Below are positions 17,490 through 24,000 of a DNA stretch of 64,000 nucleotides, piece by piece. Every line of letters starts with the position of its first letter. Position 1 is the stretch's first letter. Origin of the DNA: Prorocentrum cordatum (Eukaryota); assembly GCA_963575745.1 (NCBI GenBank), contig CAUYUJ010000048.1:496001-560000 (forward strand), given 5' to 3'. The notes under the pieces were generated by a model. That model was not told the origin of the DNA and searched no databases. It saw only the letters and a list, made by a program, of their open reading frames with translations. The position numbers were made by a program, and so were the translations under genes.

Positions 17490-18760
17490 GTTGGGAGTAG
17501 GGCGTGGTGAGTAGTGAGTAGTGAGTTAGTGCGTAATGGGTAGTGAGTATTGGGTAGCGAGAAGTGGGTAGTGAGTGGCGAATACGGAGTAGGGAGGAGG
17601 GAGTGGGGAGTAGTGTGTAGAGAACAGTGAGTAGTGTGTACTGACAAGTGGGTAGTGAGTGGCGAGTAGTGAATAGTGAGTAGTGAGTAGCGAGTAGCGA
17701 GTAGTGAATACTGAGTACGGGGTAGGGAGTAATGATTAGTGGGTAGTGAGTACTGAGTAGTGAGTAGTGGGTGGCGAGTAGTGATTAGTGAGTAGTGAGT
17801 AGTTGGTAGTGCGTAGTGCGTAGTGCGTAGTGAGTAGTGAGTAGTGAGTAGTGAGTAGTGAGTACTGAGTATCGAGTAGTGAGTAGTGAGTAGTGAGTAC
17901 TGAGTAGTGAGTACTGAGTAGTACGTAGTGCGTAGTGAGTGGTGAGTAGTGAGTAGTGATGAATAGAGAGTAGTGGGTAGTGGCCGTGGGTAGTGAGTAG
18001 TGAGTAGCGAGTAGGGAGCAGCGAGTAGTGAGTAGTGAGGAGCGAGTAGGGCGTAGAGAGTAGTCAGTAGTGAGTAGTGGGTAGTGATTAGTGAGTAGCG
18101 AGTAGCGAGTAGCGAGTAGGGAGCAGGGAGTAGGGAGTAGTGAGCAGTGAGTAGTAAGAAGTGGGTAGCGAATAGTGGGTAGTGAGTAGCGATTGGTGAG
18201 TAGTGGGTAGTCGGTAGTGACTAGTGACTAGTGACTAGTGCCTAGGTAGTTGTGTGACTAGTGACTAGAGACTATGAAGTGATTAGTTAGTAGGGTAGTT
18301 AATAGTGAGTAGCGGGGAGTGGGTAGTGAGTATTGAGTAGCGAGTATGGGAGTAGCGAGTAGTGAGTACTGAGTACTGTGTAGTCAGTACTGTGTAGGGA
18401 GTAGGGTGCAGCGAGTAGCGGGTAGTGGGTAGTGAGTAGTGATTTGTGGGCAATGAGTAGTTAGTAGTGGATAGTGGGTAGTGAATATTGAGTAGTGATT
18501 AGTGAGTAGTGAAAAGGGAGTAGTGAGTAGTGCTTAGTGAGTAGTGAATATTGAGTAGTGGGTACTGAGGAGTGAGTAGTGAGGAGTGAGTAGGGAGGAG
18601 GGAGTAGTGAGTAGGGAGTAGTGAGTAGCGAGTAGTGGGTGGTGGGTAGTGAGTAGTGGATAGTGAATAGTGAGTCGTGGGTAGTGAGTAGGGGTAGTTA
18701 GAAGTGAGTAGCGAGTAGCGAGTACTCAGTAGTGGGTCGTGAGCAATGAGCAGTGAGCAC
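17490..18760. repeat. Degenerate 7-bp (GAGTAGT)n array
   Basis: About 1.27 kb of GTGAGTA variants. Confidence 0.95.
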
Positions 18761-19742
18761 TCTTTGGGGCTGGGGTTAGTGGTTGGGGTTAGGATTAGCG
18801 GTTTGGGTTAGGGTGAGGACTAGGGGTAGGGGTGGCGGGGGTCGGGTTCCGGAGTCAGGGGGCGTCGTGGCGAAAGGGGGGGAGGGGGGGGGGGTCGGAC
18901 CCCCCTCCCCCCTTTTTTGAAAGGGGAGGAGGGTGGGGGGGGGTTCCCCGACGACGGGGTCGGGGAAAGGGGGGGGGGGGGGGGGGGGTCCCCGACGACG
19001 GATCGGGGAAGGGGGGGAGGGGGGGGGGTCCCCGACGACGGATCGGGGAAGGGGGGAGGGGGGGGGTCCTAACCCCCCCCCCGTTGGGGAGATCCAGCGG
19101 CGCACCCTCCTCAATTTGCCCTCATTTTTCCAGTGTGGGGGGGGAATGGGGGGAGGGACGCATTAACAAAAACATGTATGGAACCCGTACCCCACCCCCA
19201 CCCCGAAGTCCGGGTCCTCGGGTTGGGTTGGGGTGGCCTGGTGGGCAGTCACTGATCTGGCAGAACGGCGACGCCTTGTGAGTTCTCGTGCGATTTCGGC
19301 GAGGGCGTGCGCGCTGCGTGCTGTTCTGTGTGAGAGCCACTGGCCTCGTGACAGTTTCCGACCAGCCACGTCTTGATCTCGTGAAGCACCCGCGGTCCTG
19401 GACGGATTTTGGCTTGCGCGCGCAGCGGCGCCCGCATATGCCCCGAAATGCGTTTGTTCAAGTGGTTCTTCGGACAAGTCACATCAGAGTTCAGCGCATG
19501 TGCATCGCGGAGTATTCTGCACAAGATGACCGGGGGTGTCGATATCAGGATGGTTGGCATGCTCTATGTTCAGGATGCACGATCGTGCAGAGCAAATGCG
19601 AACACGCAAATAATATGCGGAGGAGGGCCGTTATCCGTTATTCCTGGCCTGGGTGTGGGGGGCTGTGGATTCGTATCTCGTGGAACTTTTGCTTGGGGAT
19701 TCTCACTTCTCCCCTGAGGAACAAGGCCTCTCTGTTGGTCTC

Positions 19743-19763
19743 CCGTAGCCATTTTGGCTCAAG
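19743..19763 (+). other. Dinoflagellate spliced leader (DinoSL) copy, genomic relic
   Basis: CCGTAGCCATTTTGGCTCAAG matches the invariant 21 nt of the 22-nt DinoSL (DCCGTAGCCATTTTGGCTCAAG). It is followed by UTR and ORF, not by an SL-RNA intron, so it is not an SL RNA gene. Confidence 0.95.
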
Positions 19764-19809
19764 TCGATCCGCGCGCTGGCAGGGCCCTGCGGCCGTCGGC
19801 GGGCGCGGG

Positions 19810-21090
19810 ATGGCCGCGGTCGATATGCGTGTGCTGGCGCCAGCGGTGCGTGCCGCCGCTGCTGGAGCAGCCGAGGGAGGCGGGGGCCGCCATCAGGTGG
19901 CCGCGGCCGTCGCGGCTGCCATGCGGGTGGGGGCTGAGCTGCTGGCGGCTGGCGATAACGTTATGCTAGAGGTTCCGGAGGTCAAAGCCGAGGTGGACGA
20001 GCGCCAGCGGCTTGCGCGACCTCACCTTGTGGCAGCAGTGCAGGCCGGCGCGGCTGGGACGCCGATTCAGGTGTCGGGCCAGAGGAAGGCATTTCGGAAC
20101 GTCGCTCTCCACGACAAGCTTGGGGAGGGCGTCGATGCGCTGCCGAAGACGGGCGCGGAGGCGACGAGCATGCAGCGCAGCAGCAGGCGCCGCCGCCGCA
20201 AGCCCAAGGGCTCCCTTGGTGCGGGCTCCACCGACGGCTCCGAGGGGGTCGAGGACATGGAGCCGCAGCAGAAGCAGGAGACGATGGTGGACTACAAGCC
20301 GCTCGCCAAGCTCATCAATCAGGTGCAGGGCGACAAAGCAGAGCAGGTTTTCGACGGCAAGCAGGTGCAGCTGGCGGAGGTGCTGGCGGTCCTCGCAGGC
20401 GAGGTCGTGCAGCTCAAGGACCAGCTCGACGTGGTGAAGAAGGAGCGGAGGGAAGCGGTGCGTGTCAAGATGCCTTTGGACGAGCCCTTCCAGGCCGCTG
20501 CTCGCGCTGAATCCAGCGCGCAGGTCGACGGCATGCAGGACAAGTGCGAGAACGGTGACACCGAGCATATCGGGAAGGTTGGGGTGGAGGGCATCATCAA
20601 CCCCGTCGGTGGGCAGGACAAGCACGAGGCGAAGGACGGCCTCGTGGACGGAAGTGTAGCCAACGCCAAGGAGCAGATCGTAAAGACGGAGCAGGATGAA
20701 GTCTACGGAGAGCTGGAGGGCACCGCCAACCACATCACGATGAAGGTGTTCAAGGGCTCGGGCGGCTCGATGGCGCTGGCGATGCACGCCGATGATGCCG
20801 AGATCATCCCCGAGGTGAATATCGAGACGGCGGTGTACGATACCCTCGATTGCGTGAATAACCCCCCGCTTGCAGACGATCGCAATGTCGATAAGCGGGC
20901 GGAGCTGGAGGGCATCGTCAACCCCATCACTATGAGCGAGTTCTCCCCTGGGACAGTTTTGGAGGGCGGCGCGGCAGCTACCTTCGAGGAGCGGGTGCTG
21001 ACTCTCATGGCGGAGGAGGGCGTGACGCGCAGTGTGGCGACGCTCATCGCGGAGGCCATGGCTGAGGTCGACGCCAGCAAGGCGCGCTGA
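19810..21090 (+). CDS. Intronless retrogene ORF, 426 aa, hypothetical protein (Ala-rich N-terminus, basic RRRRRKPK patch, HSP70 C-terminal-like fragments)
   Basis: First ATG after the SL is at 19810 (MAAVDMRVLAP...), TGA at 21088-21090. Codon usage is strongly GC3-biased with no stops or frameshifts. ELEGTANHITMKVF and IETAVYDTLD...ELEGIVNPITM resemble HSP70 lid helices. Confidence 0.8.
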   Translation: MAAVDMRVLAPAVRAAAAGAAEGGGGRHQVAAAVAAAMRVGAELLAAGDNVMLEVPEVKAEVDERQRLARPHLVAAVQAGAAGTPIQVSGQRKAFRNVALHDKLGEGVDALPKTGAEATSMQRSSRRRRRKPKGSLGAGSTDGSEGVEDMEPQQKQETMVDYKPLAKLINQVQGDKAEQVFDGKQVQLAEVLAVLAGEVVQLKDQLDVVKKERREAVRVKMPLDEPFQAAARAESSAQVDGMQDKCENGDTEHIGKVGVEGIINPVGGQDKHEAKDGLVDGSVANAKEQIVKTEQDEVYGELEGTANHITMKVFKGSGGSMALAMHADDAEIIPEVNIETAVYDTLDCVNNPPLADDRNVDKRAELEGIVNPITMSEFSPGTVLEGGAAATFEERVLTLMAEEGVTRSVATLIAEAMAEVDASKAR

Positions 21091-24000
21091 GCTTGGGGGC
21101 GGCCTGTCGCTCCTCCTCGGAGCTCCCGTCCTCCCTCCTCCTGGCCAGCGCTGGCGACGGCATGGCGAGGCTCGTCGGAGGGTTGCTGGGAGTAGACAGG
21201 TTCGGTCAACGGTGGCCAAAAAAAAAAATTCTCTGTTGGTCTGGCGGCTATGTTGCCCCCGTCGCCACCGCGTCGCCGCCTCGTCGCCGCCCGTCATGTG
21301 GACATGTCTGTCCGTCTGGAGGCTATGTTGCCGCCGTCACAGCTGCGCCGCCGCTTCGTCGCCGCCCGTCGCCTGGGCTTGTCTGTCGGTCTGGCGGCTA
21401 TGTTGCCCTCGTCGCTGCCCCGTCGCCGCTTTAGACTGCACAGCATATGCAGCATCACATCGATTGCGCAAATATTGTACCGCATATATTCTCCTTTCTA
21501 AAAAGAGAAAAGATAGACTCCACCCCCCCTCCCGGAGTTATCCGTACCCCTCTCGGGTATGTAAGTCATATATGATTCTGACCACATGTCCACCCGAAAT
21601 ATAATTTACACTATCCCCGGGGGGCCGGGATCGGTCCCCCTGAGGTTCCCTGGTAAAAAACGATACGCGGGGACATGCTTTGTTCTAACATAAGACTTGT
21701 TCACGAATCCCTTGCAAAACATTGGACGAAGTGCACACGCGCGCGTCGTCGCGCGCGCATGCCGGAATCCTTCAAAAACCTTCGGTGTCGGAAGGATTTC
21801 GCAATCGAGTTTCCAACAAAACATACAACAACCACAGGGTTTCGCAACACAGATTTGCTAAAAAAGCTTACGCGCGAGCTCTTGCGAAAGCTTACGAAAT
21901 CCATCGGTTCTTTTTAAGATGTTCACAAAATGCTACCAAACGGGCTTCGCGCGCGCGCATGTCGAAATCTGTCGAACGCCCTTGTGCGTATGTCGTCGCG
22001 AGAATTCTTTGCAAAAGACGGGACGAAGTGCAGACGCGCGCGTCGTCGCGCGCGTATGCCGGAATCTTTCAAACCCATCGGCTTCCCAAGGATTTCAAAA
22101 CCGTGTGTTTAAAAAACCCACAAAAACAATGTTTCGCAACACGGATTTTCAACAAAAGCGTGCGCGCGCGCTCTTGCGTCGTCGTCGTCGTCGCCGTCCT
22201 CCCTCCTCCCGCGTCGTCGTCGTCGTCGCCTACGTCGTCCTCTGTCTTTCTTCGTGTTTGTCGTCGTTGTCCTCTTTGGCGTCGTGGTCGTTTCCGTCGT
22301 CGTTGTCGCCGTGGTCGTCCTTCCTCCTCCTCCCTCGTCGTCTTCGTCGTCGTCGTCGTCGTCCGTCGTCGGCGTCTCGTCGGCGTCCCTCCTATTTCGT
22401 CGTCGTCGTCGTCGTTGTCGTCGTCGTCGTCTTCCCTCCTCCCTCGTCGTTGTCGTCGTCGGCGTCGCCGTCCTTCCTCCTTCTTCGTCGTTCGCGTCGT
22501 CGCCATCCTCCCTCCTCCCTCGTCGTTGTCTACGTTGTCGTCGTCGTCGTCCTCCCTCCTCCCTCGTCGTGGGCGTCGTCTTCGTTGGCCACGTCGTCGT
22601 CGTCGTCGTCGGCGTCGGCGTCGTCGTCTTCGTCGTCGTCGGCGGCGTCATCCTCGTCGCCGTCGTCGTCGTCGTCGTCGGCGTCGTCGACGTCGTCGTC
22701 GTCGCCGGTGTCGTCGTAGTCGGTCTTAGGAGGTTTTGCGAACCAAGTTGCGGGTGTATGGGTGGGATGTTTGCAAGAGCATGGGATGTGTCAAATCATT
22801 TGTTAAAATCAATTGCACCACATAGACTGCACCATGTAGCTTGCACAACATAGTGCACCACGTGGATTGCACAACATTGATTGGCACAAAATCAATTGCA
22901 CTATGTAGCTTCTATTTTCTAAAGAGGAGATAGGTTCTACCACCCTCCCCCCCGACTTAATCGATTCCCGGGAACCTATGCAAAACACATCTGATTCTGA
23001 CCCAATGTCCCTCCTACCTGTGAAGTCATACTGTCCCAGCCAGGCCGGTATCGGTACCCCCTCGGTTCCCTTGCAAAAAAAATGTTGCACGCGCACTCGT
23101 TTATTAGACATCGTAAGCTTACAAGAATCTCTTGCAACAAATCTGACGAAGTGCGCACGCGCGCGTCGTCGCGCGCGCTTGCCGGAGTCCTTCAAAAACG
23201 GTCGGTTTCGGAAGGATTTCAAAATCGAGTGTCGAAAAACGTTACAAGACACATGGTTTCGCACAGGGGATGTTCAACAAAAGCGTGCGCGCGCTCTTGC
23301 GAATTCCTAAGAACATACGCTTTGTTTTCCAGCATTCTCATACATTGCTACCAAACGGGCTTCGCGCGCGCATGTCGAAATCGTGCGGACGCCCTTGCGC
23401 GTGTGCTGGGGTGGCACGATCCGTGTCAAATACTACCATGGGAGCCACTCTCGCGCGTCGGCCGCGCGCGCATTTCGAATTCCTTCCAACCTTCATCACC
23501 GACACGAAGACGCCGTCATCGTCGTCGGCGTGATCAGCATCGGCGCCGTCACTGGCTGCCCCGTTGTCGTTGCCAGCAGCATCACCAGCATCGCTACAAG
23601 CATCATAGCGTCCACCGTCGTCGACTTTGCCATGATATCGCGCACTCCCAAGTCGCCGAGTCGCACTGAAGTGCCCGTTGGGATGTGCCGAGCGGGCAGC
23701 GCCACCGCGTTCGCGTCGGTCGCGCCAAATTAGCTGGCCGCTGCGCGCGCGGGCATGCGCGGGCTAATGCGGCCGCAGAGGTGCACCAGCCAACACCCAG
23801 CACTCATCGCAACCGCTCCCGCGCGGGTTTTGCAAACCAAGCTGCGGGTGGGTGGGTGGGATGATCGCGCGAGCAGTGGGAAAAGACAACTTCAAATTTG
23901 GCAAATGAATTGCACCGTTTAGACAGGACCGCCTAGCTGGCACAACCTTTTTATTAAACTGCATATTGCACCGCCTGGCTTGTACAACATATGGTCCTTC

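Follow-up and report, generated by a model that had tools for sequence, protein, structure and literature searches.

Dinoflagellates recycle messenger RNAs (mRNAs) into their genomes, and what this creates beyond plain duplicates has been little explored; the original description of dinoflagellate retrogenes bearing a relic spliced leader (SL) dates from 2008. Such processed retrogenes are described in the excerpts available of PMC5585692, PMC6050394 and PMC12014239, and the excerpts of the two retrogene surveys among these (PMC12014239 and PMC5585692) make no mention of HSP70, heat shock, chimeric genes, fusion or template switching. In mammals and Magnaporthe, template jumps by the reverse transcriptase of long interspersed elements (LINEs) produce chimeric retrogenes (PMC2104539, in excerpt), and no account of chimeric retrogenes, of template switching or of genes derived from HSP70 in dinoflagellates was found in the partial texts of the literature covered (one paper library). 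Here we consider a locus in a 64,000-nucleotide (nt) stretch of the Prorocentrum cordatum genome (positions 496,001 to 560,000 of contig CAUYUJ010000048.1, referred to as the window), where a retrogene-like block contains the open reading frame (ORF) P0001, the rear half of which appears to be built from decayed copies of the HSP70 lid (positions are those of the window, and residues are those of P0001 unless another protein is named). The block resembles the described dinoflagellate retrogenes in carrying poly(A), a target-site duplication and, 5'-terminally, a relic SL (DinoSL), and in lacking introns, and differs from them in its mosaic content and in belonging to a family with a common N-terminal module (the N-module), both of which lie outside that description.

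Profile comparisons confirm the predicted descent of 20530-20934 from the C-terminal helical lid of a cytosolic HSP70. When an alignment of 20530-20946 with the related proteins P0003 and P0004 (alignment A2) was used as a profile against the PDB, all eight matches at E ≤ 10 were to HSP70 or BiP lid chains (the best was 2p32_A with E = 0.025), and both repeat units of the profile aligned to the same lid region of these chains. A comparison of this alignment with one of 22 HSP70 lids (A4) by hhalign gave a probability of 96.8% and E = 2.8e-10 over 70 colinear columns, and a hidden Markov model (HMM) of 57 distinct lids scored P0001 at 28.6 bits, with none of 2000 shuffles exceeding 6.8 bits and with domains at residues 240-265 (weak, independent E-value 0.063), 289-321 (3.2e-5) and 337-375 (9.2e-7). 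Our HSP70 references were eukaryote-type ORFs from giant-virus contigs plus 73 from 77 metagenome loci located with a GC-rich ELEGxxNPI pattern (a first viral scan with the longer pattern ELEGxxNPIMMK gave no loci), and the unbiased tests are therefore the PDB results and those in which the motif had been removed. With the ELEGxxNPI core taken out, comparison with the lid of L077, our nearest reference, gave Smith-Waterman (SW) scores of 40 for the unit 1 flank and 46 for the unit 3 flank (reached by none of 2000 shuffles in either case) and 31 for the downstream flank of unit 2 (reached by 1 of 2000), and the upstream flank of unit 2 alone was not significant against the same lid (124 of 2000). 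Unit 3 (residues 98-135 of P0002) is 54% identical to the L077 HSP70 over 39 amino acids (aa).

The original prediction, which was made from the window without database searches, had held that the C-terminal half consists of repeated, decayed pieces of the HSP70 lid, that these stay in frame, and that the ATPase domain and substrate-binding beta-domain are missing, and in each of these respects it agrees with our results. The six motifs that it quoted all lie in one frame between 20530 and 20934, within the 426-aa ORF. A full-length HSP70 HMM (30 sequences and 653 nodes) matched P0001 at nodes 572-638 only, and the ATPase (nucleotide-binding) domain and the beta-sandwich substrate-binding domain are absent by both the HMM, in which nothing upstream of node 572 was matched, and Pfam, which gave no PF00012 match. 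What P0001 shares with the HSP70 family (PF00012) is thus sequence homology to the helical lid, the alpha part of the substrate-binding domain (SBD-alpha), and this only as partial, repeated and decayed copies. The HSP70 C-terminus that had been given with the prediction also proved accurate almost letter for letter, as seven unlabelled contigs with six distinct lids (L024, L031/L035, L057, L076, L077 and L081) carry real HSP70 ORFs ending in this way, and it is these contigs that provide the best matches. No SL was found on the HSP70 reference contigs, which are unlabelled and may not be dinoflagellate.

A number of results weigh against this descent. Single-sequence phmmer searches of Pfam and the PDB with P0001, the stretch and five sub-pieces gave no HSP70 at E ≤ 10, and word-indexed searches found no relatives for the whole of P0001 or for residues 241-378 (the lid region of another relative, P0085, matched itself only). 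The BLAST and HMM E-values against our references are inflated, as these were picked by ELEGxxNPI; a generic upstream-only lid HMM without the core motif was not significant, its score being reached by 217 of 2000 shuffles; and a comparison with HSP70 ORFs at the nucleotide level matched nothing beyond the 28-29 nt motif by which they had been fetched, which is not independent evidence. The ESM Atlas gave no usable match. The original prediction had named the lack of any significant local alignment to HSP70 C-termini, at the protein or nucleotide level, as the outcome that would count against it, and the null results of the single-sequence searches, taken alone, are that outcome. The picture changes with the relatives, and local alignment is recovered at the protein level by the profiles and the motif-removed flanks. 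The same empty Pfam and PDB searches and the non-significant generic HMM are what would be expected if the likeness were due to chance or composition, as a recurring short acidic helical motif, and this we regard as extremely improbable given that the PDB profile matches were all to HSP70 or BiP lids, the hhalign E-value, the two flanks that no shuffle equalled, and the match of P0085 to HSP70 with E = 1.9e-9.

Within every unit the order of the HSP70 lid is kept, and the units follow one another head to tail, each with a different internal deletion and all with common boundaries running from an EAKNGL-like start to an AGG-like end (Table 1). The original prediction had described the pieces as shuffled, a view we do not retain since this layout indicates two to three tandem, internally deleted copies, and KHEAKDGL, from the start of the lid, follows GVEGIINPV, from its end, because a tandem repeat gives that order. 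In the hhalign comparison, units 1 and 2 were read as a single lid copy with GKVGVEGIINPVG as an insert. Less decayed versions of the P0001 lid units are found in P0003 and P0004, and we note a 320-nt contig (run X6, record 15) which has 38 nt in common with the unit 3 motif at 20898-20935 (2 differences) before diverging into ...KVGDRVRITK, and which is probably another paralogue bearing the lid motif.

An AlphaFold2 model of 20530-20946 had a predicted local distance difference test (pLDDT) score of 39.2 and almost no secondary structure, which is weak evidence as the alignment was shallow (three sequences only). A folded lid is not predicted for the lid relics, and the protein is predicted not to be a chaperone because it has neither a nucleotide-binding nor a beta substrate-binding domain and no predicted lid fold. 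The lid-derived repeats could instead be a selected functional domain, such as a helical partner-binding module or a mimic of the HSP70 C-terminus, and not decaying filler. P0001, P0003 and P0004 have diverged by 40-56% and yet all keep an intact ORF, HSP70-like positions (MKVF.G, AV.D.L.C and DKR.ELE) are found among the residues that the three have in common, an identical transcript occurs in runs of at least four studies, and the tail is well conserved, all of which favour a function; however, the internal deletion differs between units, the model has almost no structure, and P0001 lacks the terminal EEVD of cytosolic HSP70 (it ends ...AEAMAEVDASKAR), and on balance we think that selection for such a domain is possible and somewhat unlikely.

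Within the rear half of P0001, conservation is highest in the C-terminal tail that follows unit 3 (70% identity to P0049), and a PDB profile search with this tail returned nothing meaningful. The tail contains GGAAATFEE, which resembles the HSP70 C-terminal GGAGPTVEE and is at the expected position past unit 3, and this likeness is only suggestive and not significant overall (35-780 of 2000 shuffles over seven references). The alignment of P0001 to the full-length HSP70 HMM continues to residue 402, which is within the tail. An impression that the tail is like a ubiquitin-associated (UBA) domain had no Pfam support.

Table 1. Features of the retrocopy and of the P0001 protein that it encodes.
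Feature	Position	Strand	Basis
Left target-site duplication copy, 13 nt, TCTCTGTTGGTCT	19729..19741	+	Exact-string search: only 19729-19741 and 21230-21242
Relic dinoflagellate spliced leader (DinoSL core), 21/21 nt	19743..19763	+	Sole perfect match in the 64 kb window
P0001, intronless ORF, 426 aa + stop codon	19810..21090	+	ORF translation; RNA-type contigs over 19752/19758-21211/21212, 0 differences, no joints
Conserved N-module (residues 11-132), ending in basic patch RSSRRRRRKPK (20176-20208)	19840..20205	+	Family HMM, 135.8 bits
Probable decayed HSP90 fragment (residues 153-186), ...DYKPLAKLINQVQGDKAEQV...	20266..20367	+	Profile, HMM and hhalign
Lid unit 1 (residues 241-266): 15-residue HSP70-like piece and short ELEGxxNPI-like copy VGVEGIINPV, internal deletion	20530..20607	+	Flank SW 40; weak HMM domain
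Motif MQDKCENGDTEHIGK	residues 242-256	+	Translation
Motif GVEGIINPV	residues 258-266	+	Translation
Lid unit 2 (residues 267-321): EAKNGL-like start, decayed middle, ELEGTANHITMKVFKGSGG	20608..20772	+	HMM domain 289-321; downstream flank
Motif KHEAKDGL	residues 271-278	+	Translation
Motif ELEGTANHITMKVFKGSGG	residues 301-319	+	Translation
Lid unit 3 (residues 322-375): IETAVYDTLDCVNNPPLADDRNVDKRAELEGIVNPITM, 39-residue HSP70-like run	20773..20934	+	54% identity over 39 aa to L077; HMM domain
Motif IETAVYDTLDCVNNPPLA	residues 338-355	+	Translation
Motif ELEGIVNPITM	residues 365-375	+	Translation
Conserved C-terminal tail (residues 376-426)	20935..21087	+	70% identical to P0049; shared with P0003
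Poly(A) tail remnant, 11 A	21218..21228	+	RNA-type contigs end earlier, at 21195-21212
Right target-site duplication copy, 13 nt, TCTCTGTTGGTCT	21230..21242	+	Exact-string search

We read the block at 19743-21228 as the processed retrocopy of a dinoflagellate mRNA or else as the expressed gene. The relic DinoSL, the tail of 11 A and the 13-nt duplication give it the anatomy of a dinoflagellate processed retrogene, in agreement with the original prediction which had called the locus a retrogene, and the block is also colinear with a mature mRNA. In a control for the DinoSL, none of 100 shuffles had any match with three mismatches tolerated. The 13-nt duplication brackets exactly the SL-to-poly(A) block, with the left copy abutting the SL relic except for a single extra C (19742) at a position where the canonical dinoflagellate SL has A, G or T, and the right copy lying where a 75-bp tandem array begins (21232-21431, 2.7 copies). 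Simple repeats surround the retrocopy, including about 109 copies of (GTGAGTA)n, a 40-bp repeat rich in G and a long tract resembling (CGT)n (18000-18757, 18931-19066 and 22177-22722). No family was found by Pfam for 19 long ORFs elsewhere in the window, and a tblastn search of the window with P0001 returned the gene itself and no further copy.

The stretch occurs in 20 of 24 listed public runs, in 16 of which at least half of its sampled words were present, and the top share of 0.82 is equal to the SL-to-poly(A) fraction of the query. All four runs from which we obtained contigs, each from a different study, contain the mature sequence from 19752, 19758, 19773 or 19791 to 21195-21212 (1405-1473 nt) with 0-1 differences and no gaps or joints, and no contig of these runs covers anything outside 19742-21290 or enters the flanks. 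An identical transcript of mature, polyadenylated type therefore exists (one of the four runs is a poly(A) metatranscriptome and the other three have no recorded kind; contig depth cannot rank expression). We also note that the contig from the poly(A) metatranscriptome (X15) has a single G>A change at 21016 which would replace Glu with Lys at codon 403. Run X1 has a set of short contigs that agree with 20893-20929 at all but 2 of 37 nt and whose upstream continuation reads QLADKDEFEA; the bin depth here is 24,610 compared with 258 elsewhere (depth being a hint only), and these contigs are most simply the organism's own HSP70 mRNA.

It should be noted that the block equals a transcript exactly and that many relatives come from short transcriptome-type contigs, as might be seen if cDNA contamination or a chimeric contig had produced an artefact of assembly or annotation. 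We judge this very improbable, as the 13-nt duplication surrounds the block inside a genomic tandem array, the same contiguous sequence was assembled independently in all four runs from four studies, and the pieces captured by relatives have diverged from their sources, where assembly chimeras would be identical. P0003, P0004 and P0015 share the lid-repeat architecture at 44-60% identity, and the mosaic is thus far older than the insertion of the retrocopy; together with the mRNA contigs, this leads us to discard the suggestion in the original prediction that the mosaic had been built at this insertion.

P0001 belongs to a dinoflagellate family with a common N-module and unrelated C-terminal parts. 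An exhaustive phmmer search with P0001 gave 105 proteins at E ≤ 0.001, most of them over residues 7-150 only, with matches to the rear half for P0003 (E = 1.8e-24), P0004 (1.3e-19), P0015, P0039, P0048, P0049 and P0077. With a family HMM the N-module was recognised in P0001 and, among the 106 proteins retrieved (the 105 matches plus one cluster member), in 99 others that are credible, and P0103, a 1003-aa multihaem bacterial cytochrome, was set aside as a spurious match. The named members are unnamed protein products of Prorocentrum cordatum, and the others are from ENA, Logan and JGI contigs of 0.6-2 kb. The N-module has some 120 residues with a basic EAKRRQRGGRR-like end and invariant columns E61, R65 and R96 (alignment A3), and is predicted by AlphaFold2 to be all helical (pLDDT 87.0 from a 25-sequence alignment). 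The basic patch at its end in P0001 suggests that the protein may be nuclear. No match to it was found in Pfam, by PDB profile search or by Foldseek at E ≤ 0.001, and VIA-align reached at best a Z of 7.2, confined to residues 1-54 and at noise level for helical models.

Family members carry different cargo behind the N-module, a point which had been raised for checking with the original prediction: 89 cargo sequences of at least 40 aa formed 74 BLAST components, 66 of them singletons. Pfam matches at E ≤ 0.001 were obtained for 11 of 98 family proteins and include partial, diverged pieces of S-adenosylmethionine (SAM) synthetase (P0020, profile positions 8-47 of 99), GAPDH (P0096, 2-50 of 158) and PP2C (P0084), as well as IMCp (P0100), Myb (P0039), an EF-hand pair (P0086), an IQ motif (P0064) and a zinc knuckle (P0105). 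UniRef names P0005 phosphoglycerate kinase (PGK), and no PGK domain was found in it by Pfam. P0085 combines the N-module with a single contiguous HSP70 lid piece (residues 227-315 of P0085, best PDB match 6zhi_A), and 14 of its 15 PDB matches at E ≤ 1 were to HSP70 or BiP. We also observed a weak match of P0031, which is annotated in Prorocentrum cordatum, to an earlier part of the lid (residues 104-162 of P0031, HSP70 HMM nodes 519-578, with E = 6.3e-5 for one sequence). In a tree of the N-module with 86 rows (P0103 and 14 rows with partial modules were left out), P0085 with its HSP70 cargo was sister to P0100 with its IMCp cargo (within a clade with a Shimodaira-Hasegawa-like approximate likelihood ratio test value of 99) and P0001 was placed elsewhere, which suggests that the P0001 and P0085 lineages may have captured HSP70 independently.

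A second chaperone, which the original prediction had not mentioned, is probably represented in P0001, where residues 153-186 appear to be of HSP90 origin. A profile of residues 141-240 aligned with P0015, P0039, P0048 and P0077 (A5) gave three PDB matches at E ≤ 10, all to HSP90 (E = 0.16-0.27), in which DYKPLAKLmkqvqGDKaEQV was aligned with a conserved HSP90 segment. An HSP90 HMM made from 12 giant-virus sequences scored residues 153-186 at 8.2 bits (E = 3.4e-5, reached by none of 2000 shuffles) and P0039 at E = 1.2e-8. P0039 alone matched five HSP90 chains in the PDB over its residues 43-108 (E = 0.004-0.044, with HSP82 at 0.004), and also matches Myb repeats at residues 89-119. The hhalign comparison gave a probability of only 45% for the HSP90 piece (E = 2.2e-4 over 25 columns).

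Taking these results together, we consider it likely that the retrocopy or expressed gene at 19743-21228 is a mosaic of N-module, probable HSP90 piece, tandem HSP70 lid relics and tail which arose by an ancestral capture at the level of RNA or cDNA and was later retroposed. The ancestor of the subfamily would have captured a 3'-proximal piece of HSP70 mRNA and a piece of HSP90, most likely through template switching by a reverse transcriptase during retroposition, after which the lid unit would have been duplicated in tandem and have decayed, and much later a copy would have been retroposed into the 75-bp tandem repeat. The N-module, the HSP70 lid pieces and the probable HSP90 piece come from at least two different transcripts and are in the same orientation, and template switching is a plausible capture mechanism because of the probable HSP90 piece in P0001 and the decayed pieces of other abundant proteins in its relatives. 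An excerpt of PMC3229502 places HSP70 and HSP90 with the expressed sequence tags (ESTs) that are most represented in a dinoflagellate.

Other observations tell against this scenario or parts of it. Template switching is only plausible, the junctions in P0001 being decayed and the fusion older than the insertion, and the pieces captured by relatives are from 5', middle and 3' parts of the donors and not from 3' ends alone (our searches could see in-frame sense pieces only). The HSP90 claim rests on E-values which are marginal in the PDB profile search and hhalign, most cargo-bearing relatives are from short transcriptome-type contigs, and the transcribed locus is either the retrocopy or its parent, between which the contigs cannot tell. 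A single capture of HSP70 is not rejected by the approximately unbiased (AU) test in which P0001 and P0085 are placed in a single clade (p = 0.115, for a pair that was picked once the tree was known).

The mosaic could also have been produced at the DNA level, by ectopic recombination, an exonised retro-fragment or transposon capture followed by unequal crossing-over, with no template switching involved. Units with identical boundaries are what the tandem duplication of one unit would give, the cargo of relatives is from any part of the donor protein, and tandem repeats are common around the locus. Set against these, all of the pieces detected are from genes expected to be highly expressed, for which PMC3229502 (in excerpt) gives support in the case of HSP70 and HSP90, and the locus itself shows active retroposition, and we regard a DNA-level origin as less probable than not, if still worth considering. 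A further and more doubtful proposal, which would build on capture at the RNA or cDNA level, is that the N-module family is a recurrent acceptor whose transcripts are repeatedly fused during retroposition to the most abundant mRNAs (HSP70, HSP90, GAPDH, SAM synthetase and EF-hand proteins). If this were true, mRNA recycling in dinoflagellates would be an exon-shuffling engine which makes new expressed proteins, and the N-module might itself participate, for instance as a protein that binds the RNA encoding it.

Two things are new here, namely the HSP90-like piece at residues 153-186, which has moderate support, and the dinoflagellate N-module family with its unrelated cargo. The occurrence of decayed pieces of abundant proteins across the family points to new genes assembled from captured mRNA fragments, and the locus and the family provide a concrete sequence-level case in which fragments of chaperone and housekeeping mRNAs are found in frame in expressed ORFs behind a common N-module. 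RNA-mediated exon shuffling becomes testable in a system where SL relics date and mark retroposition, and a large uncharacterised family, with a confident prediction for the N-module and no known fold, is flagged for functional study.

In comparison with known systems, P0001 is similar to the HSP70 lid (SBD-alpha; PDB 2p32_A, 1ud0_A, 4kbq_D, 6zhi_A and 7n6g) in being colinear with the final helices of the lid and the GG-rich beginning of the tail, including ELEGxxNPIxxKxYxxxGG, and differs in having no nucleotide-binding domain, beta-sandwich or EEVD and in a unit that is repeated, internally deleted and without a predicted fold. Pack-MULEs and Helitrons are DNA transposons which capture gene fragments, and they too give rise to transcript families with one element-derived part and assorted fragments of host genes, whereas the carrier here is an SL-tagged mRNA retrocopy, and hallmarks of a transposon were not noticed at our locus, though no search was aimed at them. 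Like our locus, the chimeric retrogenes made by LINEs, as they are described in the excerpt of PMC2104539, join copies of different cellular transcripts in one orientation, draw on abundant RNAs, and have poly(A) and a target-site duplication that encloses the entire unit. In contrast to these, the junctions in P0001 are too decayed to show template jumps, the fusion is old and in frame, is translated as part of a conserved ORF and is found across a gene family, and the N-module recurs as the 5' partner of many cargoes.

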